Source: Candidatus Hodarchaeota archaeon
GTDB taxonomy: Archaea > Asgardarchaeota > Lokiarchaeia > Sigyniarchaeales > SOKP01
Assembly (NCBI GenBank): GCA_048886685.1
Contig: JBHLKM010000009.1
Location: 32,001-96,000, forward strand
Reading direction: 5' to 3'
Length of the DNA stretch: 64,000 bases
The number at the start of each line of letters is the position of its first letter. Position 1 is the first letter of the stretch. Below are positions 4,451-36,664 of the stretch, one piece after another. The notes beneath the pieces are model-generated. The model ran no database searches. It saw only the letters and a program-made list of their open reading frames with translations, and was not told the DNA's origin. The position numbers and the translations under genes were made by a program.

Positions 4451-5728
4451 TTGGAACTCAAAGAAGTTTGGTTAATTGATTATGCACGCACTGCATTCTC
4501 CCGTTCAAGGCCAAGACAACCAGAGAGAGATGTTTTTGGGGAGATTAGGGGAGATGAATTGTTAGCAAGGTTGTTAAAAAAATTTTTTGATGAAAAATTA
4601 GCCGATAAAGGCATAGAGAAAAAAGATATGGAAGAGGTCTCAATAGGAGTTGCTGCAGGTGTTTTAGAGAATTGGACATACGGTGGGAGACTCCCTATCT
4701 TTTTAGCTGGGTTCCCTGTTAACGTACCAGCATTTTTTATTGATAGACAATGTGGATCTGCAGGTTCAGGAATGCATATTGGTATAATGGAACTTATGAC
4801 TGGAAATGCTAAATGTGTATTAGCAACTGGTTTTGAACATATGACTCGTGTTAGGGGAAGAGGAACTGAACCAAATTTAAAATTGTTGGAAAAAGGTAGC
4901 GAATTTTATCGTCCTGATCTGGAAATGCAAACATCTTTCAACATGCTTCAGACAGCTCAGAAATTATATGAAGAAGAAGTACCAACATTTACAAAAGAAG
5001 ACTTAGATAAGTTTGGTGTGAGAAGTCATAATTTAACTGTTAAAAGCCATGAGGAAGGTTGGTTTAAAGGTGAAATCTTTCCCATAGAAGGACATGTAGA
5101 TGGAGATAATAACACTCCCCTAATTGTGGATAGAGATATGAATGCAAGGCCCTCAAGTATGGAAGGACATGCAAAATTACCGAGGTTATCTCAACCATTT
5201 TACTTGGAAAAGAACGGTGGAAAAGAAGGATATGAAAAACGCGAAGGAACTGATCAAGGAGTTATCACTGTAGGAAATTCTTCACCCTTAAATGCAGGAG
5301 CTACAGCAGCAGTCTCAATGACGGCTGAAGAAGCAAAAAAGAGAGGACTTAAGCCTATGGCAAGAATTTTATCTATTGGTTGGGCAGGCGTTCATCCATC
5401 AACTATGGGACGAGGTCCTGTTCCTGCAACTAAGAAAGCATTAGAATATGCAGGTCTTACTGCTGATGATATCGATTATTGGGAAATCAATGAAGCATTT
5501 TGTATAGTAGCCTTAAATTGTATGGATAAATTAGGTATTCCATGGGAGAAAGTGAATGTTATGGGAGGCTCTACTGCAATCGGCCATCCATTAGGTTGTA
5601 CTATGATTAGACTTACAGGAACTTTAGCAAGGATTTTAAAAGATAAAAAGGCTAAGTATGGTATAGCTAACGCTTGCGTAGGCGGTGGACAAGGCGTTGC
5701 GACTCTCATAGAAAATCTTGATGCCTAA
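4451..5728 (+). CDS. Thiolase (acetyl-CoA C-acyltransferase), catalytic residues intact
   Basis: DRQCGS (nucleophile Cys), EINEAF, GHPLG, CVGGGQG. Confidence 0.95.
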   Translation: MELKEVWLIDYARTAFSRSRPRQPERDVFGEIRGDELLARLLKKFFDEKLADKGIEKKDMEEVSIGVAAGVLENWTYGGRLPIFLAGFPVNVPAFFIDRQCGSAGSGMHIGIMELMTGNAKCVLATGFEHMTRVRGRGTEPNLKLLEKGSEFYRPDLEMQTSFNMLQTAQKLYEEEVPTFTKEDLDKFGVRSHNLTVKSHEEGWFKGEIFPIEGHVDGDNNTPLIVDRDMNARPSSMEGHAKLPRLSQPFYLEKNGGKEGYEKREGTDQGVITVGNSSPLNAGATAAVSMTAEEAKKRGLKPMARILSIGWAGVHPSTMGRGPVPATKKALEYAGLTADDIDYWEINEAFCIVALNCMDKLGIPWEKVNVMGGSTAIGHPLGCTMIRLTGTLARILKDKKAKYGIANACVGGGQGVATLIENLDA

Positions 5729-5733
5729 TCCTA

Positions 5734-5746
5734 TTTTTTTATTTTT
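5734..5746 (+). terminator. Oligo-T archaeal terminator
   Basis: T7-A-T5 tract just after the thiolase stop codon. Confidence 0.5.
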
Positions 5747-5911
5747 AAGCGTAAGGATTTAACAAATTTTTTTATTTTTTTACAAAATTTTTAATGAACC
5801 TATTTTTACTATCAATGCGGGGATTTAGATCATTATAATATGAAAGATTTAAAGTTAAAGTTAAATTTCATACTGTAAAAATATTTTATAAAAAGTTTAA
5901 GTGATATAACT

Positions 5912-6853
5912 ATGGGAATGCTAGATGGAAAAGTTGCCATAATTACAGGTGCTGGTCGTGGGGTCGGTCGAGAGGAAGCATTAATTATGGCAAAAGAAGG
6001 ATGCAATTTAGTAATTAATGATATTGGCGGGGGAGCTAGTCATCTCGATAAAGATATTAAAATTGCAGACGCTGTTGTAGAAGAGGTCAAGGCTCTTGGA
6101 GTTAAAGCAATAGCAAATTACGACTCTGTAGTTGATTATAATAAAATGAAAGCTATGATAGATAACACTATATCTGAATTTGGTAAATTAGATATCGTCG
6201 TAAATAATGCAGGTATTTTACGTGATAGAATGATCTTTAACATGTCAGAAGAAGAATTTGACCTTGTTATTGGAGTTCATATGAAGGGTACATTTAATTT
6301 AACTAGACATGCTGGTGCTTATTTTAGAGAGCAAGGAAAAGCAGATGAAACTTTAGGCAATTTTGGTAGAATTATTAATACAGCTTCAGATTCTGGTTTA
6401 TATGGAAATGTGGGGCAATCAAATTATGGCGCCGCTAAATCTGGAATAGCTACTTTTACAGTAATTGTATCTAGAGAACTTGCTAAATACGCAACGGTTA
6501 ATTGTGTTGTACCAAGTGCTCGTACCCGTATGACTACTGATTTAACACCAAGAATGGCTGGATTTATGGAAAGGAAAACGAAAGATGGTTTTGATGTCTT
6601 TCATCCGATGCATTTTGCACCATTAGTTGCTTATTTAGCTTCAGATGCCGCTAAAGATATTAATGGAGAAGTATTTAGAGCTATTGGTGATAAAGTATGG
6701 GTGTATCGTGGATGGCGTGCTGTAAAGAAAATATCAAATGATTGGCAAACATTTACCCCACAACAATTAGCTGAGCGATTTTCTGAATTAATGAAGGATT
6801 TGCCTGATAAAAGGGAAGGTGCAGCAAGTCCACAGGAATTAGGAATGATGTAA
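5912..6853 (+). CDS. SDR oxidoreductase, MFE-2/HSD17B4-like 3-hydroxyacyl-CoA dehydrogenase
   Basis: TGAGRGVG, VINDIGG, NNAGILRDR, GLYGNVGQSNYGAAK (YxxxK). Confidence 0.85.
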   Translation: MGMLDGKVAIITGAGRGVGREEALIMAKEGCNLVINDIGGGASHLDKDIKIADAVVEEVKALGVKAIANYDSVVDYNKMKAMIDNTISEFGKLDIVVNNAGILRDRMIFNMSEEEFDLVIGVHMKGTFNLTRHAGAYFREQGKADETLGNFGRIINTASDSGLYGNVGQSNYGAAKSGIATFTVIVSRELAKYATVNCVVPSARTRMTTDLTPRMAGFMERKTKDGFDVFHPMHFAPLVAYLASDAAKDINGEVFRAIGDKVWVYRGWRAVKKISNDWQTFTPQQLAERFSELMKDLPDKREGAASPQELGMM

Positions 6854-6912
6854 TTTAATTAAAATATTTTCTAATTTTTTTTTATTTTTATTGTATTTTT
6901 AAGTATAAAATA

Positions 6913-7806
6913 GTGAGTAAATTGGTTTTTATCTATAAAGAAGGAAAATTTAATGATAATAGTTATTTAATTGATGGTTATTTATTTGGGGGGCCAAGAA
7001 GTCTTGCTCTCTATGTAATTGAAAATAGTGGATCTCGGATGCTTATTGATACGTCGACTCCAGAAATGGCAGAAAGAGTTGTAAAAATGTTAAAACAATT
7101 TAAAATTTATCCTATTCATAAGATTTTACTTTCACATTCACACTGGGATCACACCGCAGGGGTCAACCAGCTAAAATCACTAATGAAGGATGTTGATATT
7201 GAAGTATTGGCATCTGAAAATGCAATTGAGAACTTAAAAAATCCAACAGTTATGAATGCTCCTTTTGAAACCACATTTGAGCCTATAGATGATGTTATTC
7301 CATTAAAAGAAGGAGATTTAATCCATCTTAACGGTCTAAAGTTAGAGGTTTTTAATTTCTTTGGGCATACAATGGATTCTATAGCAGTTCTTGATGAAAA
7401 AAATAGAAATATTTTTACGGGAGATGCCATAATTGATAAATCAGGTTATACATACCTTCAGCCAACTTTTATGCCACCAGAATTTAATGAAGCTGAATTG
7501 CTAAAAACATTTCAAAAACTTAGAGATCTAAAAAAAAAGCTAAACTCTATTACTTTAGCTCATTTTGGGGTATGGACAGATGAGGATTTTGAAACTATTC
7601 TTAATGAGATGGAAGATTTTCACTTCAAAACAAAAAAGGCAATAATTCAATGGTATAATGAGAATCTCTCAAGCAGAGAAATTACCCTCAAATATTTTGA
7701 GACTTTTATTCCCAAATCTAAAGTAGTTGAATATGGATTATTAGACAATTTAGAAATGAACATCAAATGGCTAATAGAAGGTTTAAAAGGGAGTGGCTTT
7801 ATTTAG
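6913..7806 (+). CDS. MBL-fold metallo-hydrolase
   Basis: HSHWDH, GHT, FTGDA, AHFG metal-binding motifs. Confidence 0.9.
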   Translation: MSKLVFIYKEGKFNDNSYLIDGYLFGGPRSLALYVIENSGSRMLIDTSTPEMAERVVKMLKQFKIYPIHKILLSHSHWDHTAGVNQLKSLMKDVDIEVLASENAIENLKNPTVMNAPFETTFEPIDDVIPLKEGDLIHLNGLKLEVFNFFGHTMDSIAVLDEKNRNIFTGDAIIDKSGYTYLQPTFMPPEFNEAELLKTFQKLRDLKKKLNSITLAHFGVWTDEDFETILNEMEDFHFKTKKAIIQWYNENLSSREITLKYFETFIPKSKVVEYGLLDNLEMNIKWLIEGLKGSGFI

Positions 7807-7917
7807 GTTTGGCAATCTGATATAATTGATAGTAAAAATAAAGTATTTGAAATGATTAATATACGACTAGAAATAAAAATAAATTGGATTTAAAAAATAT
7901 AAGAAAGGTAAAAAAAA

Positions 7918-8754
7918 ATGTCGTCTGGATTAGATTTAAATTGCGTTGGTATAAAGAATCCGGAAATGACTTTTAAATATACTTGGAGAGATGCCGTACT
8001 TTATGCCGTAGGAGTTGGTGCCCAAGCGGAAGAACTTCCCTTTGTTTATGAGAATACTCCTGGTGGAATTAAAGTTCTTCCTAGTTTTGCGACCATTGCG
8101 AGAGGGATTGCCTTTCCACGCAACTTAGGAAATATATTTTTCCCTAGGTTCATACATGGAGAGGAGTTAATTCATTTACACCAGCCTTTTCCGTCTCAAG
8201 GAGAAGTGATATGTTTTAGTGAAGTTACAGATATTTTTGATAAAGGTAGGGCAGCAGTTATTCATGTAAAATTCACTGGACTAACAAAAGATCGAGAACC
8301 ATTATTTGACGTCAAATCAGCATTCTTTTACTTGGGTGGTGGTGGATTTGGAGGAGATCGTGGCCCTAAAAGTGAATCTTTAACTCCTCCCGAAGGGAAA
8401 GAACCAGATTTTAGCATAACATACAAAACTGCTGAGAATCAAGCAATAATATATAGACTCAATGGTGATTTAAACCCTTTACACATCGATCCTGAATTAG
8501 CAAGACAAGGTGGTCAAGATAGACCAATATTACATGGGTTATGTACTTATGGTCATGCAACAAGAGCAATACTTTATGGTGCATGCGACGGTGATGTCTC
8601 TCGTTTCAAGGAATTCAAAGCAAGATTTACAAACGTTGTTTATCCTGGAGAAACACTTATTACTGAAGGGTGGAAAGACAACGGGCGCTATATAATTCAA
8701 GTTCGAAAGGGCGATACCGTAGTACTTAGCAATGCTTATGCAATTGTTGAATAG
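7918..8754 (+). CDS. MaoC/double hot-dog (R)-specific enoyl-CoA hydratase 2
   Basis: Hydratase-2 motif YRLNGDLNPLHIDP, PILHGLCTYG, IHGEE. Confidence 0.9.
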   Translation: MSSGLDLNCVGIKNPEMTFKYTWRDAVLYAVGVGAQAEELPFVYENTPGGIKVLPSFATIARGIAFPRNLGNIFFPRFIHGEELIHLHQPFPSQGEVICFSEVTDIFDKGRAAVIHVKFTGLTKDREPLFDVKSAFFYLGGGGFGGDRGPKSESLTPPEGKEPDFSITYKTAENQAIIYRLNGDLNPLHIDPELARQGGQDRPILHGLCTYGHATRAILYGACDGDVSRFKEFKARFTNVVYPGETLITEGWKDNGRYIIQVRKGDTVVLSNAYAIVE

Positions 8755-8933
8755 GTTTCAAAAATAATTACACAATTTCTTTTATTTTTTTCTTTTATGA
8801 TCTGAGAAAAAGGATTAAAGGTTTTTCTAAAAATCACTTCTCATTGAATAAATAAACAACAATGAAGTTGAATTAAAATAATTAATAAATTATTAGAAAT
8901 AAAAGTTAATTAAAAATTATAATTTAATGAAAA

Positions 8934-9791
8934 GTGGTAAAAATGACTAGTTTAAATTTAGAGGTTATCGGAAAAGAAACGGAAGAATTGACCTTTAAAT
9001 ACACTTGGAGAGATGTAGTCCTCTATAATTTGGGAATTGGTGCTCAGCCTGATGAATTACCATTTGTCTATGAACGAACGTCTGGTGGAGTAAAAGTTTT
9101 CCCAAGCTATGCTTGCATAGTTGCCGGGAGGGGATTTGCCGGATTAAAATTGAGTAATAAAGGAATTGATGGTGCCCGGTTTATCCATGGAGAACAAATG
9201 ATCAAATTATATAAGCCCTTTCCAACAGAGGGAGAAATAATAGTCAAAGGAGTATGCGAGAATATATATGATAAAACAAAAGCTGCAGTTATACATTCTA
9301 AAATATCTGGTAGAATGCCTGATGGTACACAAATCTTTGACACGAAATATGTTCATTTTTATATTGGTGAAGGTGGTTGGGGGGGAGATCGTGGCCCAAA
9401 AGCAGAACCACTAGATCCTCCTGAAGGTAAAGAACCAAATTTCAGTATATCATATAAAACTAATATAAATCAAGCTGCCTTGTATAGATTAAATGGTGAT
9501 CTCAACCCTTTGCATTTAGATCCAGAATTTGCTAAGAGAAGTGGTAGATTTGACAAACCAATCCTTCATGGCTTATGTACTTATGGTTATGCAACTCGAG
9601 CGATAGTTTATGGTCTTTGCGATGGAGATGTTTCTCGTTTCAAAGAATTTAAAGCAAGATTTACCAGCGAAGTATATCCTGGTGAGACATTAACGACTTC
9701 GGGTTGGAAAGATAATGGACGTTATATAATTCAAGTGAAAACTGAAAGAGGAGCAACTGTACTTGGTAATGCCTATGCTATCGTAGAATAA
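8934..9791 (+). CDS. MaoC/double hot-dog (R)-specific enoyl-CoA hydratase 2 (tandem paralog)
   Basis: YRLNGDLNPLHLDP, PILHGLCTYG. Closely similar to 7918..8754. Confidence 0.9.
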   Translation: MVKMTSLNLEVIGKETEELTFKYTWRDVVLYNLGIGAQPDELPFVYERTSGGVKVFPSYACIVAGRGFAGLKLSNKGIDGARFIHGEQMIKLYKPFPTEGEIIVKGVCENIYDKTKAAVIHSKISGRMPDGTQIFDTKYVHFYIGEGGWGGDRGPKAEPLDPPEGKEPNFSISYKTNINQAALYRLNGDLNPLHLDPEFAKRSGRFDKPILHGLCTYGYATRAIVYGLCDGDVSRFKEFKARFTSEVYPGETLTTSGWKDNGRYIIQVKTERGATVLGNAYAIVE

Positions 9792-10425: not shown

Positions 10426-11553
10426 TTAATTTTTGCGAGGGGGGAGCATTCTTACCATTCTCGGACCTTCGATAAGAGAAATTGCATTTTCAGGACAATG
10501 ATAGGCACATACACCGCATCCAGCACAGTATTCCTCAATCCTTTCTGCTTTATCGTTATCATTCAACTCAATAGCTTTATTAAAGCATAAATCTACACAG
10601 TTACCGCATCCTATACATAGGTCTTGATCGATTTCGGCTAAATAATTTGTTTCATTGACTACAGGAAAAATTAAGCAATCTCGCGCAGTCATGCAACAAC
10701 AGCTACAGCAATTACAGATTGCAACTTCCTCGGCTGCGGAATTACCATATTTATGATAGGCTTTATGAACTAAGCCTGCATCTTCACATTTTTTAAGGAT
10801 TTCCAATGCTTCCTCTTTTGATACCATTTTGGAGAAGCCATGATTAGAAGTATGTCTTGCTGATTTCCCTAAAGTCATACAACTTGGTGTAATTTCGATC
10901 ATCTTACAGGGGTTACCCAGAAATTCTTGATGATTACGACAATAACAATTTCCTACAGCAATATCATCATACTTTTCAATTAGCTCCCTGATTTTTTGAG
11001 TTGGTAATATTTTTTCTTCTGGAACTTCTAATTCTTCATTTATAATAACATTAATCTCTTCACCAGTTTCTAAATCTTCTAAAATCGGGACTGTACGATC
11101 CATTGCTGGCATACGACTTAATGCCGCACTAAATCCATCATATTGAGATTGGACAATTTCGGCATGTTCCTCATTCAATTTGCCAAATAACTGTGCGATT
11201 CTGTAATTTTCCTCAGTTTTTTCAAGATCGTTCATAAAAATATATTCAAATTGTCTGTGAAGAGGGAATAATTGATATACCATTACACCACTGCGATTAG
11301 GTTGGTTAATTATTACACCCTTTTTTGCTAAAACATCCGCTTTCTTCAAAATCTCTTCTTCAGATAACCCGCTACTCTCCTTTAATTGTTCCATTGTTTG
11401 GGAGATTTGATTTTCAAAAGCCATAATAAAATCCAGATTTTCATCTTTAATAGTGTATTTTAAAATTTCATGTACAGTTTCTGAAAATGGGAATTGAAAG
11501 CCTCCTGCTTTAAACAATATTTTAAGAGCTTTTTGATATTCAGCTTCACTCAT
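10426..11553 (-). CDS. Multi-Cys Fe-S protein with C-terminal 2x[4Fe-4S] ferredoxin domain
   Basis: CYCR, ICNCCSCCC, CIGCGNCVDLC, CAGCGVCAYHCP. Confidence 0.85.
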   Translation of the reverse strand: MSEAEYQKALKILFKAGGFQFPFSETVHEILKYTIKDENLDFIMAFENQISQTMEQLKESSGLSEEEILKKADVLAKKGVIINQPNRSGVMVYQLFPLHRQFEYIFMNDLEKTEENYRIAQLFGKLNEEHAEIVQSQYDGFSAALSRMPAMDRTVPILEDLETGEEINVIINEELEVPEEKILPTQKIRELIEKYDDIAVGNCYCRNHQEFLGNPCKMIEITPSCMTLGKSARHTSNHGFSKMVSKEEALEILKKCEDAGLVHKAYHKYGNSAAEEVAICNCCSCCCMTARDCLIFPVVNETNYLAEIDQDLCIGCGNCVDLCFNKAIELNDNDKAERIEEYCAGCGVCAYHCPENAISLIEGPRMVRMLPPRKN

Positions 11554-12571: not shown

Positions 12572-12572
12572 A

Positions 12573-12593
12573 TTTTTTTTCTTTTTTTTTTTT
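12573..12593 (+). terminator. Oligo-T archaeal terminator
   Basis: T8-C-T12 immediately after the stop codon. Confidence 0.6.
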
Positions 12594-12696
12594 CCATTTT
12601 ATTTAAGTAAGACAAAAAGATATGAAAATATTTATTTAATCAATAAATTTCAACATTATATTCGTAAAATTTTAAACTAAAAAGAGAAAAAGAAGT

Positions 12697-14028
12697 ATGA
12701 AAGAAACAAGGGAAGTATATTTAGTAGACCATCTAAGGACACCATTTTCCCTATCAAATCCTCTGGAACCCGATAATGATGTTTTTAGTAAGAAGTGGGG
12801 AACTGAACTTGCAGCTCATGTCTTGACAGAAATGTTTGATAACCGAATACCCAATAAAGGTAGTACACTCAAGCGTGAGAATGTTAGCGAGGTTTTGGTT
12901 GGTAGTGCTTTATTGCAACATGAGCATGGGACATATGGGGGAAGAATACCTGGCTGGATGGCAAAATTTCCCTTCCATGTGCCTGCAACGGTATTCGACA
13001 AGCAAGACGGTTCCGGTATGACAACTTTGCATGTTGGATTTGGAAATATTTCAATGGGTTATTCCGATATGGTAGTAAATGTGGGTTTTGATCAATTTAC
13101 TCGTGTACCATTACATAGTTACGGTGGAAAAGTAGAAGTATTTGGATGGCCTCCAGATAAACTTATGCTTGATCCAGAGAGTAAATGGTATAACGACGAT
13201 TTATATGACTGGAAAACGAGCCGGTTATTATTCCAAACGGCTCAAAAACTTGCGGAGGAAGAAGCAGATCTTTTCACTAAAGATGAAATGGATAAATTTA
13301 GTTTTCGAAGTCACAATTTAGCAGAAAAAGCTCAGGAAGAAGGATATTTCAAGGAAGAGATAATGGCTATTCAAGGTCATAAAGTTGGAGAAGCTGAAAA
13401 TGAAATTGAGATCACAGAAGATCTATCAATTAGGAAAGGCATTACTTTAGAAGATATTGCTAATATGCCCCCCATAAGCACTCCAGGATGGGCAGGTGGC
13501 TATAAAAATCCCATATTTTCCAAGGAAGCATATGTTACAAAATTTGGAACAGAAAAAGGGATTATAACAGTAGGAAATAGTTCCCCATTATGCGATGGGG
13601 CTTCACTTTGTTTATTAGCTTCTAAAAAAGCACTTGAAGATTACAACTTGAACCCTATGGTTAAAGTTATCTCAATTGGTTTTGCAGGAGTAGATCCAAC
13701 AGTACGAGGACGAGGTGTAGTACCAGCATCCCAAATGGCTTTAGAGCATGCAAATTTAAAAGTTGATGATATTGATTATTGGGAAATCAATGAGAGCTTC
13801 AGTATCGTAGCACTTCACGCTGCGAATAAACTAGGAATCGATTGGGAAAATAAAATGAATATTCATGGAGGAGCAATAGCGATAGGGAATCCAGCATCCG
13901 CCACAGGATTGAGAATTACAACAACCTTAGCCAGAATTCTTAAAGAAAAAAAAGCAAAATATGGCCTTGCTGCCATGTCATGTGGTGGGGGTCAAGGAGC
14001 TGCAGTAGTAATCGAGAATTTAGATTAA
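12697..14028 (+). CDS. Thiolase-fold protein with substituted catalytic residues (pseudo-thiolase)
   Basis: Full-length thiolase homology, but DKQDGS, EINESF, GNPAS and MSCGGGQG replace DRQCGS, NEAF, GHP and CxGGGQG. Confidence 0.9.
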   Translation: MKETREVYLVDHLRTPFSLSNPLEPDNDVFSKKWGTELAAHVLTEMFDNRIPNKGSTLKRENVSEVLVGSALLQHEHGTYGGRIPGWMAKFPFHVPATVFDKQDGSGMTTLHVGFGNISMGYSDMVVNVGFDQFTRVPLHSYGGKVEVFGWPPDKLMLDPESKWYNDDLYDWKTSRLLFQTAQKLAEEEADLFTKDEMDKFSFRSHNLAEKAQEEGYFKEEIMAIQGHKVGEAENEIEITEDLSIRKGITLEDIANMPPISTPGWAGGYKNPIFSKEAYVTKFGTEKGIITVGNSSPLCDGASLCLLASKKALEDYNLNPMVKVISIGFAGVDPTVRGRGVVPASQMALEHANLKVDDIDYWEINESFSIVALHAANKLGIDWENKMNIHGGAIAIGNPASATGLRITTTLARILKEKKAKYGLAAMSCGGGQGAAVVIENLD

Positions 14029-14070
14029 AAAAAATATGATGTAAAAATAATAAAAAGAGGTTAAAAAAAA

Positions 14071-15375
14071 ATGAAAATAAGAGATGTATATATAACAGAT
14101 TATATAAGAACTCCATTTTCAAGATCTCGGCCAAGAGAACCGCCAAGGGATGTTTTTGGAAATTTGCGTCCTGATGAATTGACTGCGTTAACTTTAATCG
14201 AAATGTTTGACAATCGATTAAAAGATAAAGTTACACCTGAAGATGTCGATGAGTTTTATATAGGAGCTACTCATTTCAATTATGAATACGTTACACTTGG
14301 AGGAAGATATCCTATATTTTTAGCGAAATTTCCGACCAAGGTATCCTCTGTTGCATTAGATAGACAATGTGGTTCAGGAATGACCTGCGCTTCCTTAGGA
14401 TATAATAATATTGCAATGGGATACTCTGATGTTGTAATAGCTTCCGGGAAAAATAATGCTACTATGTCAAGATCAAAACGTCCAACCATGAGAGAGTTAT
14501 CCCCAGCGATGAAGAAAGGTCATGAATTTTTTATTGATGATGTTGTTGATTTCCGTTGTTCGGGTTCAATGTTACAAACCGCCCAAAAACTCCATGAAAT
14601 GGACGCTGACATATTCAATAAAGAAGATAACGATAGGTTTTCAGTTCGTAGTCATCAATTAGCTTCAAAAGGTCAGGAGGATGGCTTTTTCAAAGGGGAA
14701 ATTGTCCCTATTATGGCACATGCAGAAGGTGATGAAGATACTCCATTGTTAATTGAACATGATACATCAGTACGAAAAAATGCTACATACGAAGGAACAC
14801 GAGATTTAAGGGGATTAACTACACCTGGTTGGGCTGGTGGATACTATAGACCACTCATGACCAAAGAAGAATATGTTAAAGCGTTCGACACAGAACAAGG
14901 TTTAGTAACTGCAGGGAATTCATGCCCTATAAACGCGGGGGCCGCAACGTTATTGCTAATGTCAGAAGATGCTATGATAAACCATGAACTAGACCCATTA
15001 GCACGTATTGTTTCAAATGGTTTCGGAGCAGTAGATCCTACTGTTATGGGGAGAGGTCCAGTTCCAGCGTCGCAGATGGCACTAAAACATGCAGGGTTAA
15101 CAGTTGATGATATTGATTATTTTGAAATCAATGAGGCATTTGCTATTGTAGGTCTAAACTGGGTCCATGAGATGGGTTTAGATGATCGAATGGATGATAT
15201 AAATATATATGGTGGAGGAATCTCAATAGGACACCCAATAGCGGCAACAGGTCCAAGAATAGTTGGGACCTTAGCAAGAATCCTTAAAAAGAAAAACGCG
15301 AAATATGGTCTCGCTACAATGTGTTGTGGCGGGGGTCAGGGAACTGCAATGATTATTGAAAATCCAGACGCGTGA
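14071..15375 (+). CDS. Thiolase (acetyl-CoA C-acyltransferase), catalytic residues intact
   Basis: DRQCGS, EINEAF, GHPIAATG, MCCGGGQG. Confidence 0.93.
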   Translation: MKIRDVYITDYIRTPFSRSRPREPPRDVFGNLRPDELTALTLIEMFDNRLKDKVTPEDVDEFYIGATHFNYEYVTLGGRYPIFLAKFPTKVSSVALDRQCGSGMTCASLGYNNIAMGYSDVVIASGKNNATMSRSKRPTMRELSPAMKKGHEFFIDDVVDFRCSGSMLQTAQKLHEMDADIFNKEDNDRFSVRSHQLASKGQEDGFFKGEIVPIMAHAEGDEDTPLLIEHDTSVRKNATYEGTRDLRGLTTPGWAGGYYRPLMTKEEYVKAFDTEQGLVTAGNSCPINAGAATLLLMSEDAMINHELDPLARIVSNGFGAVDPTVMGRGPVPASQMALKHAGLTVDDIDYFEINEAFAIVGLNWVHEMGLDDRMDDINIYGGGISIGHPIAATGPRIVGTLARILKKKNAKYGLATMCCGGGQGTAMIIENPDA

Positions 15376-15445: not shown

Positions 15446-16030
15446 CTATAATCTTCTTTTCGGTCTAGGAGGAATATAATATACCTTAGGTTTTGTTCCC
15501 TCCTCAGTTTTAAGTTGAAACGTTCCCTTTTCAGATATTATTTTTGATATCCTACTATTAGAATCATTCAAATCCCCGAAGTGAATTGCTTGTCCTTCAC
15601 AACAAATCACACAAAATGGTTCAAGCCCTTGATCGACTCTTTGAAAACAAAAATTACACTTTCCTGCAATATTAGTATCATCATAGAATACAATGACATT
15701 GTAGGGGCAAGCGGTTAAACATGATTGACAGCCGGTACAAAATTCTGGATCTAATATAACAATCCCATCGTCTCTTTTATAGAGAGCTTCCTCGGTACAA
15801 GAATCAACACAAGGAGGATTCTCACAATGATTACATAGCTTAGGAAGAAAATCCATTGTTAAATTTGGAAAATTTCCTCCTGGAGTATCTTTCACAGCAC
15901 CGCCCTGAGTTTCAACTTTTATCCAGTAATCAGTGGTATTATTTTCAATTTTACACGCTATAGTACACGCTTCACATCCAATGCATCTCTCTTGGTCAAT
16001 AACCATTCCTAATCGTTTGCTATTATTCAT
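15446..16030 (-). CDS. DmsB/NrfC-like four-cluster Fe-S subunit
   Basis: CIGCEACTIAC, CNHCENPPCVDSC, CTGCQSCLTACP, KCNFC...PFCVICC. Confidence 0.92.
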   Translation of the reverse strand: MNNSKRLGMVIDQERCIGCEACTIACKIENNTTDYWIKVETQGGAVKDTPGGNFPNLTMDFLPKLCNHCENPPCVDSCTEEALYKRDDGIVILDPEFCTGCQSCLTACPYNVIVFYDDTNIAGKCNFCFQRVDQGLEPFCVICCEGQAIHFGDLNDSNSRISKIISEKGTFQLKTEEGTKPKVYYIPPRPKRRL

Positions 16031-18291
16031 TTCCTACCACTCTCAATTTTTATAATTTCAACAGCAACATCATTCATATGCATATTTGGTTCATAGACCT
16101 TGTCTTGAACAGGATTAATGATGTCGTGGGTTAGATGATTTAAACTTCCCTCTTTAAACTGTCCTATCCACCAACCTTCCGTAATATCGACTACACCTGG
16201 TTTAACTCCTTCAGATACTCTAGCTTTAAGTGTTGTTCGAGCTCTATCATTATAAACTGTAACTATATCATCCGTTTTTATATTTCGCTTCTCAGCATCA
16301 ATCGGATGAATATCTACCAATGGCTCAGGATTTAACTCAAGCAAAGATTTTACATTTGCAAACATAGAATGTGTGCGAAATCGACTATGACCATTTATAA
16401 GCGTTAAAGGAAATTTTTTGTCCCCCGGCGTAATCGGTGCTTCAATTGGTGGCAAATAGACAGGAAGAGCTTCTCCATCTTCATATAGTTGTTCCGCGTA
16501 CAATTCAATTTTTCCTGAAGGAGTGCGAAATGTAAGAGGGAAACTTGCTCCTTCTGGAAGTGTTGGTAATTTCATAGCTTGCGTTTTCAAGGTTTCCTGA
16601 GTGAATCCATCAAAAGTACGGGTTGCCATGATAAGATCTATTAATCCTTCTTCGCCACCCTTGAAATACTCACCAAATCCAAGACGTTCAGCAAGTTCAG
16701 AAACTATATTCACATCTGATTTAGATTCATATAAAGGTTCAATTACTTTTTGTTGAAGTTGTACATTAGGATAGGGATGTGCTAAAAAATCAGAAAATTC
16801 TAGGAAACTACAAACTGGAAGAAGTAAATCAGCAAATCGAGCAGAGGGTGTCATGAATAATTCTGTTTGTACAATAAAATCTAAATTCGGGTAAAACTTT
16901 TCAATGATTTTATTCGAATTTGCGCATTGATTTAAGAAGTTAATGAAAGCAAACCAGAGTGCCTTTATTGGATATGGCTTTCCAGAAATCACAGCGGCAT
17001 AAAGGTTAAGAATACCCATTCTATGAAAACTTGGTTTATCAGGGATGGCTTTAAGGAATGGATTCCAATTCAGAATTGCAGGTATATAACCCGAACTAAC
17101 TTTCGTGGTCACATTTCCAGTAATGGCAGCAACAGAGATAACTCCTCTTAAAGAGATATCTCCATGGTAAGTTCGTGTAAAACCCATATGAGTTAAAAAT
17201 ATCACTTTTTTTGAATTAGCAATTCTTTTTGCCAACTTAACAATAAGGTCTTTGTCAACACCTGTAATTTCTGCGGTTCTTTCGGGAGTATATTCAACTG
17301 CTAAATCCATTAAAAGTTGAAGTACAGGTTTGCATTCGATACCATTTATACTATAAGTTCCAATTAGACTTGCCTCTTTAGAATTAGATCGAGATAATGT
17401 CTTATGGGAATTAGAAGGCCCATGCCAAATTATATAAGCCTCTGGTTTTTTAGCTTCAACATCTTTTCCACGCAGCATTTTTCCGGTATCATTTCTCACT
17501 AAATATGGTCCATTTGTATGCTCTAAAATGAATTCCTTATTATGTAAATCATTCTGGAATATAACATTCATAATTCCAAGAGCTAACGCACTATCAGTTC
17601 CAGGAAATAGCCCTATATATTCGTCTGCTTTTGATGCAGTAACCGTAAAACGTGGGTCAACAACTATAACTTGAGTTCCAACCTCTTTCGCATCCATAAC
17701 TTTTCTCATATTATGTAAGGGCATGGATTCAGCTGGATTTGTAGCCCATATCATTAACAATTCGGGATATTTTCTCTGCCAAAACTCTCCATGTAAATGC
17801 ATATAAGGAAATTGGTGTCCTAAAATAATTCTACTCCCACATGGTAGGCCTGCATCTCCATATCCCCATGCACTCACACGTGTACTCTGAGTTAAACTAG
17901 CCAATCTTAAATATGCACCAAATTTGGTACTTCCTGCCCCAGGACCCCCTAAAACCCATCCAATCGATTTCCATCCATATTTTTCAGAAATTTCTTTAAA
18001 TTTATTGACGATAATTTCATATGCCTCATCCCAAGATATTCGTTCAAATTTTGCTTCACCCTGCTTACCAACTCGTTTCATTGGATATTTAATACGATCT
18101 GGGTGATAAGTTATATCCAAACTTGTTAAACCTCGTAAACAAATCCTCCGATCCATTTCATCAGGAAAATCAGCAGGCTCCAATTTAACAATACGATCTC
18201 CTTTTAAATGAGCAATTATTCCACAACAATCTATTCCACAATGAGCTGGACATGCTGTTCTTATAAGTTTAACCTCCTCGCTTGCTACCAT
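16027..18291 (-). CDS. Mo/W-bisPGD (DMSO reductase family) oxidoreductase, catalytic subunit, no Tat signal
   Basis: CPAHCGIDC...ICLRG, HPDRIKYPMKRVG, DPRFTVTASKAD, FRTPSGKIEL, RFRTHSMF. ATGA overlap with the Fe-S subunit gene. Confidence 0.92.
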   Translation of the reverse strand: MVASEEVKLIRTACPAHCGIDCCGIIAHLKGDRIVKLEPADFPDEMDRRICLRGLTSLDITYHPDRIKYPMKRVGKQGEAKFERISWDEAYEIIVNKFKEISEKYGWKSIGWVLGGPGAGSTKFGAYLRLASLTQSTRVSAWGYGDAGLPCGSRIILGHQFPYMHLHGEFWQRKYPELLMIWATNPAESMPLHNMRKVMDAKEVGTQVIVVDPRFTVTASKADEYIGLFPGTDSALALGIMNVIFQNDLHNKEFILEHTNGPYLVRNDTGKMLRGKDVEAKKPEAYIIWHGPSNSHKTLSRSNSKEASLIGTYSINGIECKPVLQLLMDLAVEYTPERTAEITGVDKDLIVKLAKRIANSKKVIFLTHMGFTRTYHGDISLRGVISVAAITGNVTTKVSSGYIPAILNWNPFLKAIPDKPSFHRMGILNLYAAVISGKPYPIKALWFAFINFLNQCANSNKIIEKFYPNLDFIVQTELFMTPSARFADLLLPVCSFLEFSDFLAHPYPNVQLQQKVIEPLYESKSDVNIVSELAERLGFGEYFKGGEEGLIDLIMATRTFDGFTQETLKTQAMKLPTLPEGASFPLTFRTPSGKIELYAEQLYEDGEALPVYLPPIEAPITPGDKKFPLTLINGHSRFRTHSMFANVKSLLELNPEPLVDIHPIDAEKRNIKTDDIVTVYNDRARTTLKARVSEGVKPGVVDITEGWWIGQFKEGSLNHLTHDIINPVQDKVYEPNMHMNDVAVEIIKIESGRK

Positions 18292-21291: not shown

Positions 21292-24144
21292 ATGGAAGTT
21301 TTTTTAAAAAGAGCAGAAAGGGCATATAAAGAAAAGCTAGGGGAAACTAAAGCAGTTTCCATTTTGGGCAATATAAAAAAAGCAGTTAATGAAATCCCAG
21401 CTAAATTTAGACGTGTAATTGGCTCAGAAATCCCGAGATTTTTGTTTAATTACTCTCAAGAAATTGAATACGTTTCACCTGGAATTACTGAAAGTGTGCT
21501 AAATCACATTTTTATTTTCGCAGAAACTTTAAAAGATTTAATTAACAAAGATAGAAACCAGGTGAATCAACTTTTAAATAAGAGAAGCAATAACAAAGTA
21601 CGAAATCTTTCTGAATTGTTAAACTCACTCGTTGAGAAAGCTAAAAATGGAGGAACTATCGAAAAAAATTGTAATTTTGATGTTGTTCTTGCTTACGTGT
21701 TTGGAGAAAAAAGTGAAATTACTCAACTGAATGATATAGAATTATTTGTAAAACGTGCAGAGAAAAACCTTGCATTAAAAATTGGGGAAGAAAAGGCGCA
21801 ATCTTATTCAGAAAATATTATAAAAACATTCTCTGAAATTGATGAGAATCTAAAGGATTATATAAGTTCTGAAGTGCCTAAATACCTATTTAAATTTTCA
21901 CAAAATGTTGAGAACCTTACAGTTGAAACATTGGAGGTTATCTTGAATCATGTAATTTTGTTTAATCGGGCACTTTCTAATCTGAATGGAAAATCCAAAG
22001 AACAAATCAATCAGGAAATAATAAAACGGAGTAAGAACAAATTATTTACTTTATTAGATCTATTTATTGCATTTCTAGATGCAGTTAAGAATGGAAATTC
22101 AATTGAAACTTGTGAAAGCTTAGAAGATATTTTGATTCATGTGCTAGGGGAAGAAGAAAAACGAATTCAATTTACTGATGTTGAAGCTTTTTTAAAACGA
22201 GCGGAAAAGAAATATGCTTTAATAATTGGTCAAGATATGATTCAGATGTTAATGGAAGAATTACTAGACGCAATTGATCAAATTCCAGAACAACATAGGG
22301 AATACCTCGGATCTGATCTAGCAAAATTTCTGTTCAAATTCTCAGAAACAGCGTCATATCATGAACCTGAAAAAGTCGAGTTATTATTTAATGGAGCTAC
22401 AATGTTTGCAAATTCATTAAATGAATTAAACGATTTAAATAAAGCAGAAATTAATCAATTTATCATTAACAGGTCTAATCACAAAGTAAGAAGTTTATTT
22501 TCTTTATTTGAAGCATTTCTAGAGAAGATAAAAATACGCATGCCATTATCAATTGAACCCAATTTTGATGAAATACTTATCCACACTCTCGGTAGATATG
22601 ATGGACCTAAAATGATTGAAAAAGGGGGTTTGATTCATGATTTATTGGCAGAATATCATGAGGAAATTCCCTTAGCAAAAGAGCATTTTAGGTGGGCTAA
22701 TGCTATAACAGAAATTGTTCCTCGTTTTCTTGATATCCTTTCAGATCCAGAGGGAGATCGCATCTTAGATTTTCTTTGGGAAAATAGGTTCCCTATGGAT
22801 CAAATAAAGGAACAATATCAAGAAAAATTAGTAGAGATTCCAAGAGAAAAAGAAAAAACATTTATGTTCCGTTTATTGACAATGTTGACTAATCAAATTT
22901 TAATTGATCCGGAAAAAGATAAAAAATTGACAGCAGCTATAGCGTTTAGGGTTCTTGGAACTATCTTTATTGAGATGTTTGGAGGTAGGAATGCACAAAT
23001 CAGAGGTATTAGACTTAATCAACTATTGAAAGATCGTAAGGTTGCGAATGTTGAGAAAAAGCAAAACATTGATGATCACATTAACCGTATTCTTGAAGAA
23101 GATCTAAAAGCGATTCAACAAAGAACTATGACTATTAATACAATCGGTCCAGTTTTGAGTAAAAAAGGTTATTTCATTAAAACATATGACATTATTACAA
23201 AAGATTTTCCTGAAATAATAGTCAAAATAATTTCATATCGAGAGGAAGAACGCTTAAAAGACATCGGCACTGAGTATAAGAAATCAGGTATTACAGGGGA
23301 TCTTATTCCGCTCGTAAACTTTTTTCTTCAAAACCTTGATTTGGCAAGTAGATTTTATAAAAAATATTTCGAAGAGATGTATCAAATTGCTTATGATGCC
23401 CAGCAGAACATGCTAACTATTAGAAAATTCTTTAAATTATTGGTAGATCTAAGAGAAAATATTGATACTATAGAATTTTATGGTAATCAAGTTGCTAATA
23501 CAGAACATTCGATATACATCTTGTTGCTAAAATATTTATACACTCCCTTACCAGAAGTATTTGAAACTACAAGAACTATTCTTGATGAGCAAGAATACCA
23601 AAAGAAAATCATGAAACTTGACAAATATCTAAGCAACCAGAACCTAGAACAACTTCAGGTTGAAATCAGAAATACTGAAAATAAAATTCAAGAATATAAA
23701 GAGTATGAGGATTTTGATGCTTCTCAAAAAATCTCGAATTTAACAAAATTTCTTAATAGAGATAAAAATGAAATAAAGTTTTACGAGATTATGTTTCATC
23801 TTAGAGATGAATCAGAAAAAATCCATAAAATTTTAGAATCAAGAGTAGCATTTTCTAAGACACTTTTAAAGTATTCAAATTCTTTGAAAAAAGTACATTC
23901 TAGTCTTCCAGCTGCATTATCTGAAAATTTAGAAAATTTAAATGAATTTAACCAAGAAATTGATAAAATTCTTAATCAAATAAAAGAGAAAAGTTCTTCT
24001 GGTATTCTCTCACCTTTTGAATTTAAAGAAAAAAATGATGCTGCTGAAACATTGAAAAAAGAATTACAGAATTTATGTTCGAATGATGAGTTCACTAATC
24101 ATATCAAGGATCTAACAGCAATGTCAGAAGTAACGATTACTTAA
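21292..24144 (+). CDS. Large alpha-helical hypothetical protein with three 148-aa N-terminal repeats and a C-terminal coiled coil
   Basis: 950-codon ORF. Repeats start with xExF(L/V)KRAE at 21292, 21736 and 22180. Confidence 0.85.
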   Translation: MEVFLKRAERAYKEKLGETKAVSILGNIKKAVNEIPAKFRRVIGSEIPRFLFNYSQEIEYVSPGITESVLNHIFIFAETLKDLINKDRNQVNQLLNKRSNNKVRNLSELLNSLVEKAKNGGTIEKNCNFDVVLAYVFGEKSEITQLNDIELFVKRAEKNLALKIGEEKAQSYSENIIKTFSEIDENLKDYISSEVPKYLFKFSQNVENLTVETLEVILNHVILFNRALSNLNGKSKEQINQEIIKRSKNKLFTLLDLFIAFLDAVKNGNSIETCESLEDILIHVLGEEEKRIQFTDVEAFLKRAEKKYALIIGQDMIQMLMEELLDAIDQIPEQHREYLGSDLAKFLFKFSETASYHEPEKVELLFNGATMFANSLNELNDLNKAEINQFIINRSNHKVRSLFSLFEAFLEKIKIRMPLSIEPNFDEILIHTLGRYDGPKMIEKGGLIHDLLAEYHEEIPLAKEHFRWANAITEIVPRFLDILSDPEGDRILDFLWENRFPMDQIKEQYQEKLVEIPREKEKTFMFRLLTMLTNQILIDPEKDKKLTAAIAFRVLGTIFIEMFGGRNAQIRGIRLNQLLKDRKVANVEKKQNIDDHINRILEEDLKAIQQRTMTINTIGPVLSKKGYFIKTYDIITKDFPEIIVKIISYREEERLKDIGTEYKKSGITGDLIPLVNFFLQNLDLASRFYKKYFEEMYQIAYDAQQNMLTIRKFFKLLVDLRENIDTIEFYGNQVANTEHSIYILLLKYLYTPLPEVFETTRTILDEQEYQKKIMKLDKYLSNQNLEQLQVEIRNTENKIQEYKEYEDFDASQKISNLTKFLNRDKNEIKFYEIMFHLRDESEKIHKILESRVAFSKTLLKYSNSLKKVHSSLPAALSENLENLNEFNQEIDKILNQIKEKSSSGILSPFEFKEKNDAAETLKKELQNLCSNDEFTNHIKDLTAMSEVTIT

Positions 24145-24180: not shown

Positions 24181-25401
24181 TTAAAAATTTTTAATACGAT
24201 TAGTACGTAATTGCTTTAGAAGTTGAGGAACAACTTCAAAAATATCACCTACTATCCCAAAATCAGCAATTTTAAAAATTGATGCCTCAGGATCGGTATT
24301 TATTGCAATAATTACATCACTTGTTTGCATGCCTATTAAATGTTGTATAGCGCCGCTAATTCCAAGCGCAACATATAATTTTGGACTTACTGTTTTCCCC
24401 GATTGACCAACTTGTATAGGATGAGAAGTCCAACCGAGTTCTACTAATGCGCGAGAACTTGACATTATTCCTTTTATTTCTCGTGCCAATTCTCTAACTA
24501 GTTTAAGATTTTCTTTATTACCAATTCCCCTTCCAGCAGAAACTAGAATTTCCGCTTCTTCAATGCTTATTGTATCAATTTCGAAAATTTTTTCTTCAAT
24601 AATCTTTGTTCTAATGGTTTGTTTTTCAATTTTAACTTCAAATTTATAAAACTCCCCTTTTCTAGAACTATCTTTAATTGGTATTGGAAAATTATTAGGT
24701 CGTACGGTTGCCATTTGAGGTCGTGTAAATGGAGATATAATTGAAGCCATAATATTTCCTCCAAATGCAGGACGGATTTGAACTAACTGTTTTTTTTCAT
24801 TTATTTCAAATCCTGTACAATCTGCTGTTAACCCAAGCCCTAATCGTGCTGCAATTCGAGGTGCTAAATCGCGTCCATTAATTGTAGCACCATAGAGAAA
24901 AATAGATGGTTTCTGATTAATAATTAAAGTTGTAATAGTGGTTGCATAACCATCTGTTGTATAATTTTCAAGTAGATTATGCTCACATAAATATACATTA
25001 TCCGCTCCACAATGGTATAATTCATCAATTGGTGGGATTTTTCCCGGAGATCCGAGAATAACTACAGATATTGTTTCATTAAGTATTTTATTTAATTCTT
25101 GAGCCTTTCCTAAGAGTTCAAATACCACATTTTTTATTTTTAGATTCTCTTCGTTACCTCGTTTCTCCAATTCACCCCAAATCATAATTCCTTCATATTC
25201 CTCTAATTCTTCTCTGGAAAGCGTTTTACGTTTGATAATGAGAGCATCATATTTGCAGACATTTACACAGGTTCCACAAAGAGTACAATTATCTAAGACT
25301 TTAGCTTTTTTTTCATCTGAATCAACAATTATTGCACCATACGGGCATACATTTTCGCAAACTTTACAGCCAATGCAATTATCGTCATTAATCTTTAACA
25401 T
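24181..25401 (-). CDS. etfA: Electron transfer flavoprotein alpha subunit with N-terminal 2x[4Fe-4S] ferredoxin domain
   Basis: CIGCKVCENVCP / CTLCGTCVNVC, GRDLAPRIAA, TADCT, RPAFGG, QVGQSGKTV, GISGAIQH. Confidence 0.93.
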   Translation of the reverse strand: MLKINDDNCIGCKVCENVCPYGAIIVDSDEKKAKVLDNCTLCGTCVNVCKYDALIIKRKTLSREELEEYEGIMIWGELEKRGNEENLKIKNVVFELLGKAQELNKILNETISVVILGSPGKIPPIDELYHCGADNVYLCEHNLLENYTTDGYATTITTLIINQKPSIFLYGATINGRDLAPRIAARLGLGLTADCTGFEINEKKQLVQIRPAFGGNIMASIISPFTRPQMATVRPNNFPIPIKDSSRKGEFYKFEVKIEKQTIRTKIIEEKIFEIDTISIEEAEILVSAGRGIGNKENLKLVRELAREIKGIMSSSRALVELGWTSHPIQVGQSGKTVSPKLYVALGISGAIQHLIGMQTSDVIIAINTDPEASIFKIADFGIVGDIFEVVPQLLKQLRTNRIKNF

Positions 25402-25407
25402 ATTAAA

Positions 25408-26223
25408 TTAATCAATCTCAAATTGTAATAATTTTTTTTTTCTTAGAAATGCTAACATTGCCTCAGCAGCTTTTGCTGGATCACTACCATCAATAATCTT
25501 TCCCTTTTCTTTTGGAGGTGGAGCAAAAATACTAATTACTTGTGTATAAGATCCATCTAACCCTAATTTTGCCCCTTCAACATTCAAATCTTCTGCAGTA
25601 ATAGTCTTTAGAGGCTTATTTCTTGCTTCAATTATATCTTTCATAGAGGGAAGCCTTCGAATATTAGACGGACCTTTACTGATTGAAATTAAAGCAGGCA
25701 AAGGGGATTCAATGATTTGAAAACCATTTTCAGTTTCTTTTTTAACTTTAATCTTTTTTTTTTTAATTTCCACTTCAATTCCATAAAAAATTTGAGGAAT
25801 TCCCAAATTTTCAGCTAATTCTGCAGGAACTTGTGCTGTATCTCCATCTATAGCTTGCTTTCCGCTTAATATCAAATCGAAATTAGGTACAGTTTTTAGT
25901 ATTCCTTCCTTTAAAGTTAAAGATGTTGCCCACACATCTGAACCTGCGAACTTTTTATCTGATAATAAGAAAGCTTTATCAGCACCCAATTCCAAGCATC
26001 GTAATAATGCCATTCTTGCTTGGGGAGGTCCCATTGAGATTACAATTATTTCAATATCCAAATCAGGATTATTCTCCCTTATTTTTACAGCCATATCTAA
26101 AGCATACTCACAAAATGGATTAAGAATTGATTCAACACCCTCTCTAATTAAAGTTCCATTTTCAGGATTTATCGCAACTTTATCTACTTCAGGTACTTGT
26201 TTAATTGTAACAACGATTTTCAT
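25408..26223 (-). CDS. etfB: Electron transfer flavoprotein beta subunit
   Basis: MKIVVTIKQVP, SMGPPQA, FAGSDVWAT, GKQAIDGDTAQV. Confidence 0.93.
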   Translation of the reverse strand: MKIVVTIKQVPEVDKVAINPENGTLIREGVESILNPFCEYALDMAVKIRENNPDLDIEIIVISMGPPQARMALLRCLELGADKAFLLSDKKFAGSDVWATSLTLKEGILKTVPNFDLILSGKQAIDGDTAQVPAELAENLGIPQIFYGIEVEIKKKKIKVKKETENGFQIIESPLPALISISKGPSNIRRLPSMKDIIEARNKPLKTITAEDLNVEGAKLGLDGSYTQVISIFAPPPKEKGKIIDGSDPAKAAEAMLAFLRKKKLLQFEID

Positions 26224-31942: not shown

Positions 31943-32034
31943 ATATACAACTCATTATTTTAGTTATTGAATTATAATTAGTATTAATCAAAATTCTTAA
32001 AATAATTTTATATTTAGAGAGATCTTAATTGATA

Positions 32035-33066: not shown

Positions 33067-33110
33067 ACATTTGTAATTTTAATTAAAAATAAATAGAAAA
33101 AAGAAAAGAA

Positions 33111-34844: not shown

Positions 34845-34867
34845 TTCAATTTTAATATTTCTAAAAC

Positions 34868-36592: not shown

Positions 36593-36637
36593 GTCTTAAA
36601 AGATATATAAATTTGAAATAAATCTCAATTTGAACAT

Positions 36638-36664
36638 TTATATAATTAATCAACAAATAATTAA
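36638..36664 (-). promoter_or_regulatory. TATA-like element plus imperfect palindrome TTAATCA-N5-TAATTAA upstream of ThDP copy 2
   Basis: The same element occurs upstream of copy 3 (38600-38629), while the surrounding intergenic DNA differs. Confidence 0.4.

Follow-up and report, generated by a model that had tools for sequence, protein, structure and literature searches.

The forward strand of a 64,000-nucleotide stretch of DNA from Candidatus Hodarchaeota archaeon (GenBank assembly GCA_048886685.1, contig JBHLKM010000009.1, positions 32,001 to 96,000; hereafter the window, position 1 being its first letter) carries two adjacent genes for paralogous thiolases. The downstream protein, here called the partner, has the catalytic residues of the family; in the upstream protein, here called the dead copy, they are replaced. 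As stated in the original prediction, a model's reading of this DNA made without database searches, the open reading frame (ORF) of the dead copy is full length and unshifted, and it is separated by 42 nucleotides (nt) from a thiolase with intact catalytic motifs. The features of the locus on which the argument draws are the following, in window coordinates.

12572..12595, + strand: T-rich tract just past the stop codon of the upstream enoyl-CoA hydratase/isomerase (crotonase) gene, candidate archaeal terminator
12697..14028, + strand: catalytically dead thiolase paralogue, proposed non-catalytic subunit, 443 amino acids (aa), no internal stop
12910..12948, + strand: loop residues 72-84 of the dead copy (LLQHEHGTYGGRI), between the second strand of the N-domain and a helix, in the predicted interface
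13006..13008, + strand: codon GAC, Asp104, at the site of the nucleophilic Cys (Zoogloea ramigera Cys89, CxS fingerprint)
13705..13707, + strand: codon CGA, Arg337, at the Met of VMG (Z. ramigera Met288, lining the acyl pocket)
13795..13797, + strand: codon AGC, Ser367, changing NEAF to NESF; the Asn (Asn316 equivalent) is retained as Asn365
13888..13890, + strand: codon AAT, Asn398, at the His of GHP (Z. ramigera His348, oxyanion hole)
13978..13980, + strand: codon TCA, Ser428, at the acid/base Cys (Z. ramigera Cys378, CxG fingerprint)
14029..14070, + strand: spacer of 42 nt, A-rich, with a Shine-Dalgarno-like GAGG 10 nt before the ATG of the partner and no T-run
14071..15375, + strand: intact sister thiolase (the partner), proposed catalytic subunit, 434 aa, with C100, N354, H388 and C418 present
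14446..14463, + strand: GKNNAT, residues 126-131 of the partner, clade-specific, in place of the G-x-E-H-M-T of other Asgard thiolases

Thiolases are characterized by five fingerprints, CxS, VMG, NEAF, GHP and CxG, with Met288 in the acyl pocket, Asn316 holding the catalytic water, His348 in the oxyanion hole and Cys378 acting as acid/base (PMC3406046). The translation of the dead copy reads FDKQDGS, INESF, IGNP and MSCGGG at the corresponding motifs, so that four of the five fingerprints fail (CxS is DGS, VMG is VRG, GHP is GNP and CxG is SCG), and in the fifth, NESF, the Asn is kept and the Ala (Ala318 equivalent) is Ser. The replacements that had been noticed from the letters alone (the codons GAC at 13006, AAT at 13888 and TCA at 13978, and the change from NEAF to NESF) are each as described. 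Beside the replacement of Met288 by Arg337, the equivalent of Met157 is also lost, being L178 in the dead copy.

The dead copy scores 92.5 bits against Pfam Thiolase_N (PF00108, cut-off 26.4) and 119.4 bits against Thiolase_C (PF02803, cut-off 27), two domains that together span all 443 residues, and it exceeds the cut-off of TIGR01930, an NCBIfam thiolase subfamily model (276.8 bits against 240.55). It belongs to the thiolase family by homology only, and four of the five fingerprints that define the enzyme are absent; database sources name the proteins of its clade acetyl-CoA C-acyltransferase. The partner, 48% identical to the dead copy across the full length, has DRQCGS, INEAF, IGHP and MCCGGG, and a third thiolase of the window (4451-5728) is canonical (DRQCGS, GFEHMT, NEAF, GHP, CVGGG); DRQCGS therefore stands in both of the other thiolases, as the original prediction held. 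Its observation that the dead copy and the partner share a TPGWAGGY insert is correct, but the insert is no mark of the pair. Every Asgard thiolase inspected has an insert here, and 9 of 65 Asgard thiolases other than these have it in the PGWxG form; it is an older feature of the Asgard enzymes.

Orthologues were collected with a word-indexed search of 5.8 billion proteins. Some 35 clusters at 59-89% identity to the dead copy were recovered (hereafter, the dead clade), all from Asgard archaea, with source labels of Thor-, Loki-, Hermod-, Odin- or Promethearchaeota; the next step down, at 50% identity or less, is the clade of the partner. The nucleophilic Cys, the His and the second Cys are all absent in every one of the ~35 clusters. 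Among 134 other full-length thiolases from both searches, the nucleophilic Cys is present in 134, the His in 133 and the second Cys in 130, and in the same alignment 15 of 15 members of the dead clade have none of the three. The triple loss is far beyond chance.

The residues that took the place of the lost ones are not fixed. Among 33 clade members, position 104 is Asp in 29, Trp in three and Ala in one, and position 398 is Asn in 32 and Glu in one; within the clade, position 428 is Ser, Pro, Ala or Thr, position 337 is Arg, Met, Gln, Ile, Ser or Trp, and Asn365 becomes Asp in the deep branches. Cys429, beside Ser428, is kept in 32 of the 33 members (it is Ser in P0005), and its equivalent is likewise invariant in the partner clade. 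Across 27 dead-clade sequences, 97 alignment columns are invariant.

Selection was gauged from the ratio of nonsynonymous to synonymous substitution rates (dN/dS), computed pairwise by the Nei-Gojobori method for six unsaturated genome pairs with dS of 0.5-0.9. The dead copy gives 0.11-0.14 and the partner in the same genomes 0.085-0.10, and the reading frame is intact in 13 of 13 dead copies, values that point to strong purifying selection on the dead copy and to no decay. The two outcomes that the original prediction had named as speaking against it, orthologues that keep the Cys, His and Cys and a dN/dS near 1, were not seen. The view that the dead copy is a duplicate, inactivated and now disappearing, is consistent with the missing catalytic residues and with its faster change than the partner at long distance (dN of 0.26 versus 0.14 between the window and L002, one of the loci described below). 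Conservation down to 59% identity, the intact frames, the low dN/dS and a confidently predicted fold (see below) make this so improbable that it can be set aside; a decaying pseudogene was rejected as a candidate on the conservation across ~35 clusters, the dN/dS of 0.11-0.14 and the 97 invariant columns.

The genomic context of the clade was followed by inspecting contigs for six dead-clade proteins spanning the depth of the clade and three partner-clade proteins, together with matches cut from whole genomes, which gave 13 distinct places (the window, L001, L002, L004-L012 and L016). At all 13, five of which were reached by way of the partner, the dead gene immediately precedes an intact thiolase of the [K/Q/P/T]NNAT clade on the same strand, with a gap of 14-46 nt; the downstream thiolases are 433-444 aa long and carry [K/Q/P]NNAT. 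The adjacency of homologues to the active paralogue, which the original prediction had proposed to follow, thus holds at every locus. Ten further loci resemble the window in their spacers, which are 14-46 nt long with GAGG 7-10 nt before the ATG, and none of the 11 spacers contains a T-run. Together with the T-rich tract that follows the upstream crotonase gene, a spacer with GAGG and without a T-run would fit a bicistronic unit, and the candidate terminator would make the thiolase pair a transcription unit of its own. The spacer is also conserved beyond the ribosome-binding site: a second motif, ATGAGG(T/A), lies about 20 nt upstream of the GAGGTT that precedes the ATG in the window and in L005, L006, L008, L010 and L016.

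Among 300 sampled genomes of the Asgard phylum, some of them incomplete, proteins scoring as dead clade occur in five, namely the genome of the window, three of 21 further genomes in its genus, one of which has two pairs, and a genome of another family in which the gene is cut off by the end of the contig. In the same 300 genomes, partner-clade scores are confined to places beside dead-clade scores. The pair is a rare, patchy accessory module. The genome with two pairs (G275) has them at L015 (G275:C17) and L016 (G275:C120), one with Trp at the nucleophile position (DRQWGS, IDEVF) and the other with Asp (DKQDGS); since the Trp and Asp types occur together in one genome, the sub-lineages are paralogous and not just orthologous.

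In a tree of 73 sequences (IQ-TREE, quick maximum-likelihood search, LG+G4), the dead clade, the partner clade and their grouping as sisters have support values of 99, 100 and 99, respectively, in the Shimodaira-Hasegawa-like approximate likelihood ratio test (SH-aLRT). Both clades are nested among other Asgard thiolases and have long stems (0.19 for the dead clade and 0.31 for the partner clade). Because the two are sisters in this tree, a single tandem duplication probably gave rise to both genes, with change in both thereafter. The partner has departed from other Asgard thiolases at the motif that the original prediction singled out as atypical, GKNNAT in place of GxExM: all 19 proteins of the partner clade have E128N, H129N and M130A, and in 65 other Asgard thiolases the E is conserved in 100%, the H in 97% and the M in 83%. 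Further departures from the 65 that are invariant in the partner clade are S285C, M107A, H108S and V70N. Tandem thiolase pairs of a different clade, with both members catalytically intact, are present at L013 (108-2835) and L014 (79-2789), with 445-447 aa for the upstream and 427-433 aa for the downstream protein. L013 was considered as a second, independently degenerating pair and rejected, its upstream protein having IGHP at 397 and its 32 closest relatives all being intact.

A monomer model of the dead copy, built with AlphaFold2 (AF2) from a 149-sequence alignment, has a predicted local distance difference test score (pLDDT) of 96.5 and a predicted template modelling score (pTM) of 0.94, and shows the thiolase fold with its loop domain. 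The top Foldseek match is the FadA thiolase of P. fragi (1wdk_C; E = 8.8e-40), and the next-best folds include the S. typhimurium protein 3goa; both FadA matches have a template modelling score (TM-score) of 0.92 by target length at 28-29% identity. In the model, then, the dead copy retains a complete thiolase fold.

One use to which such a fold might be put is new chemistry, the dead copy acting as a stand-alone enzyme: a retro-aldolase resembling Ltp2/Sal, a decarboxylase resembling the ketosynthase (KS) variant KS-Q or the chain length factor (CLF), or an enzyme that employs Cys429 or Asp104. Conservation of Cys429 and Glu366, the presence of Asp104 in 29 of 33 clade members and the genes for MaoC-type hydratases near the pair in several loci would suit such a role, and thiolase-like proteins with a repurposed site do exist, namely the Ltp2/Sal aldolases with their DUF35 partners (PMC12329534). 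Those aldolases, however, are of the sterol carrier protein 2 (SCP2) type and are paired with a DUF35 hydratase, whereas the nearest folds of the dead copy are of the FadA type, its nearest relatives are type-I thiolases, and none of the 30 neighbouring window products scanned matches DUF35. No replacement residue is conserved throughout the clade at positions 104, 398, 428 or 337, and the deep branches have Asp for Asn365. Cys429 was probably inherited, the active partner clade having it just as invariantly, and the sole invariant neighbour of the dead gene is the sister thiolase. Because the dead-site residues vary within the clade, we regard new chemistry at the old site as quite unlikely.

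Prediction of the complex of the dead copy and the partner was read against a mark that 58 of 80 solved complexes had attained, as had 2 of 110 mismatched pairs. The two proteins together scored 0.97 and the best of three controls 0.00; the runs share at least 93% of contacts, the pLDDT of the partner is at least 94, and the predicted complex resembles solved thiolase homodimers. Since such homodimers have already been solved, the score may reflect likeness or memory. The predicted interface is the canonical one of thiolases, with strand 93-103 against 89-99 and the 72-84 loop, from which residues 72-76 and 78-84 of the dead copy take part. Within this loop H75, E76, T79, G81, G82 and R83 are invariant in the dead clade, its 59%-identical member included. 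In PcaF, a degradative thiolase of solved structure, Q64* and R65* reach the ligand from the neighbouring subunit and a channel crosses the dimer (PMC7337054), and the 72-84 loop of the dead copy is a candidate equivalent of that ligand-contact loop by its position in the sequence. GKNNAT of the partner (126-131) and GFDQFT of the dead copy (130-135) were considered as co-adapted interface strands and rejected, both being absent from the predicted interface.

We favour, as the probable explanation, that the dead copy and the partner make up an obligate hetero-oligomeric thiolase, of which the dead copy is the non-catalytic half. An Asgard-type thiolase gene would have been duplicated in tandem, giving two sister genes that have remained side by side ever since. 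The downstream copy would have kept its Cys, Asn, His and Cys while its pocket was remodelled (NNA for EHM, S285C, M107A and H108S), and the upstream copy would have lost both the nucleophilic and the acid/base Cys, the His of the oxyanion hole and the two methionines of the pocket while keeping the whole fold and the elements of the dimer interface. The subunits would then join across the dimer interface usual for thiolases, as a pseudo-symmetric heterodimer or an alpha2-beta2 tetramer in which each dimer has a single working site. The dead subunit would be a scaffold and would lend its invariant 72-84 loop to the wall of the live subunit's substrate tunnel. A drifting dead site combined with an invariant loop is the pattern expected of a protein that has lost its site and retained a protein-protein surface. 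The original prediction had proposed selection for a non-catalytic role, which the clade-wide loss, the low dN/dS and the constant adjacency support; among the roles it put forward, the heteromeric subunit fits best, and new chemistry is disfavoured by the variation of the dead-site residues.

Several observations weigh against a heteromeric thiolase. The near-invariant Cys429 stands directly beside the lost base, although it may be simply inherited, being invariant in the partner clade too. The complex prediction cannot separate a heterodimer from a pair of homodimers, AA and BB, and any two thiolase paralogues would probably dock in this way. The equivalent loop of the partner is also invariant, at T67, H68, F69, N70, E72, G77 and G78, an invariance that a heteromer does not need if the loop only faces the dead site; it might mean that the partner forms homodimers, or that the dead pocket binds something. 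Conservation at interface positions differs little from that at other positions (0.86 versus 0.82 in the dead clade, 0.87 versus 0.87 in the partner), and no protein fusing the dead and the live subunit was found among proteins of 777-2215 aa, in what was a weak search.

The invariant partner loop, which would face the dead pocket, is also among the points that favour a role of the dead copy as a non-catalytic binder of CoA or acyl-CoA, be it a sensor, a carrier or a subunit that docks to other beta-oxidation enzymes. The pantetheine-loop motif G293-N294-S295 is conserved, the closest folds are those of FadA proteins, which work within FadAB multienzyme complexes, and the mycobacterial protein TLP1 provides an example of an inactive thiolase relative of unknown function (PMC3406046). 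Residues of the CoA and acyl sites are degraded or variable, however: the equivalents of Met157 and Met288 are affected, that of Ala318 is Ser, R246, an Arg in all other Asgard thiolases, is replaced by Lys, Gln or Asn, and R19/R21 are lost. No hydratase or dehydrogenase is a constant neighbour, and the pair at L001 has no other beta-oxidation gene nearby. We consider a binder of this kind unlikely, and note that it overlaps the heteromeric subunit instead of excluding it.

In the window the pair sits in an acyl-CoA island that comprises a thiolase, a short-chain dehydrogenase/reductase (SDR), two hydratase-2 genes of the multifunctional enzyme type 2 (MFE-2) kind, a crotonase, a FadH/BaiCD-like flavoenzyme, an electron transfer flavoprotein (ETF) with a ferredoxin domain, an acyl-CoA dehydrogenase and three thiamine diphosphate (ThDP) enzymes. 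The run at 4451-9791 (+) holds the canonical third thiolase, the SDR, a metallo-beta-lactamase-fold protein and the two double-hot-dog hydratase-2 genes (MFE-2_hydrat-2_N plus MaoC); it amounts to the MFE-2 enzyme set of peroxisomes in unfused form and is conserved in L005 and L006. At 24181-26223 (-) and 30662-38552 (-) lie genes for ETF beta, ETF alpha with an N-terminal ferredoxin domain, the acyl-CoA dehydrogenase and a Zn alcohol dehydrogenase. Two of the ThDP enzymes were identified by scan (33111-34844 and 36834-38552, both -), and the third, between them, by similar ORF size only.

Tail-to-tail with the partner is a two-subunit molybdopterin oxidoreductase (15446-18291, -), consisting of a 754-aa catalytic subunit and a 194-aa four-cluster Fe-S subunit. 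The Fe4S4 domain begins at residue 8, which leaves no room for a twin-arginine translocation (Tat) leader or signal peptide. Its NCBIfam matches are all far below cut-off, and the closest relatives with a solved structure are polysulfide/thiosulfate reductase (2vpw), type II enzymes of the dimethyl sulfoxide (DMSO) reductase family, acetylene hydratase and ethylbenzene dehydrogenase. A gene pair on the opposite strand, with the same Pfam families and similar sizes, adjoins the thiolase pair in 8 of 13 loci (the window, L002, L005, L006 and L008-L011). Upstream in the window, a 375-aa protein (10426-11553, -) has a C-terminal 2x[4Fe-4S] ferredoxin domain at about residues 300-365, its first 300 residues matching no family; a protein of 375-376 aa with the same ferredoxin-domain matches lies beside the pair in L005-L009, the copy at the end of L009 being cut to 351 aa. 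The window also has a 950-aa ORF with no Pfam match (21292-24144, +), and a product of the same length, likewise without a Pfam match, lies near the pair in L007 (12108-14960).

The gene neighbourhood suggests a substrate of the beta-oxidation type, perhaps bulky or branched. A more specific version, in which the pair is a thiolase specialized for bulky or methyl-branched acyl-CoAs, such as isoprenoid-derived ones, with the dead subunit enlarging or shaping the live pocket, in an anaerobic Asgard counterpart of the branched-chain oxidation of eukaryotic peroxisomes, is offered tentatively and as rather improbable. The route would join a split MFE-2-type (R-specific) beta-oxidation with ThDP lyase-like enzymes and a cytoplasmic molybdenum/tungsten (Mo/W) enzyme. 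Pointing to a bulky substrate, if not decisively, are the pocket residues of the live subunit that have been made small (M107A, H108S, H129N and M130A), the acyl-CoA gene neighbourhood and the Mo enzyme beside the pair in 8 of 13 loci.

Textbook thiolases are homodimers or homotetramers, with all of their subunits active. If the heteromeric explanation is right, a two-gene thiolase with a dead subunit would extend to true CoA thiolases the pseudoenzyme-scaffold principle of KS/CLF and PqsBC, a principle that, judged by these analogies, already has precedents in the superfamily. DKQDGS, GNP and SCGGG in one protein, followed downstream by a [K/Q]NNAT thiolase, would serve as a signature for proteins that automatic annotation misnames. 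The pair also marks a rare accessory module for lipid catabolism in Asgard archaea, which among archaea stand closest to the eukaryotes; peroxisome-like MFE-2-type enzymes are among its neighbours, and knowing the substrate of the pair could reveal unusual lipids that Asgard archaea degrade.

We know of no thiolase with one dead paralogous subunit, and no heteromeric, inactive or pseudo-thiolase of the PF00108 type was found in the literature searched, whose coverage leaves out most subscription journals. Related arrangements are familiar from other enzymes. In type II polyketide synthases, KS-alpha and KS-beta (CLF) are encoded by side-by-side sister paralogues, the beta subunit lacking the nucleophilic Cys and shaping the tunnel across the interface. 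Where the Cys would be, the CLF has a conserved Gln, and a role in decarboxylation has been proposed for it; the ketosynthase acts on substrates bound to the acyl carrier protein (ACP) and is not a CoA thiolase; in the dead clade, by contrast, the nucleophile site holds Asp, Trp or Ala, with none of them conserved. The acyl-CoA dehydrogenase ChsE4-ChsE5 and the hydratase ChsH1-ChsH2 of M. tuberculosis, enzymes that break down bulky lipids, are built from side-by-side paralogous subunits of which one is catalytic, an organization thought to fit bulky acyl-CoAs; they resemble the pair described here in arrangement and differ from it in fold.

The FadA thiolases (1wdk_C and 3goa) share the domain order and the loop domain of the dead copy. 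They are homodimers, however, with Cys, His and Cys intact, and lack the insert of ~24 residues before the pantetheine loop seen in the dead copy. TLP1 of Mycobacterium smegmatis has CxS, NEAF, GHP and CxG all replaced, with the replacements conserved, and shows no thiolase activity; it belongs to the SCP2-thiolase branch, is monomeric and bears an additional beta-barrel domain at its C-terminus, and the paper that describes it reports no active partner encoded by an obligate companion gene (PMC3406046). The dead copy is like TLP1 in combining the thiolase fold with replaced catalytic fingerprints. Unlike TLP1, it lacks the extra domain, has FadA-like and biosynthetic thiolases as its nearest folds and is always paired with its sister.

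In the FabH-like PqsBC of Pseudomonas aeruginosa, a heterodimer with pseudo-2-fold symmetry, PqsB is devoid of catalytic residues and serves as a scaffold for PqsC (PMC4807248). PqsBC differs from the pair in belonging to the beta-ketoacyl-ACP synthase III (KAS III)/FabH branch and not to PF00108, in its biosynthetic as opposed to catabolic context, and in that its heterodimer is known, whereas the one here is predicted only; PqsB is also shortened and strongly diverged, in contrast to the dead copy, which has its full length and shares 48% identity with the partner. The likenesses are that both systems consist of adjacent genes of one superfamily with one subunit dead, and that the active subunit of PqsBC, whose heterodimer mimics the homodimer of its family, has an atypical, enlarged site, as the partner here has a remodelled pocket. 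The trait common to KS/CLF and PqsBC, paralogous dead and live genes that lie side by side and are inherited together, is found here as well, in the arrangement at 13 of 13 loci, in the sister relationship of the two clades and in their joint occurrence across the 300 genomes.

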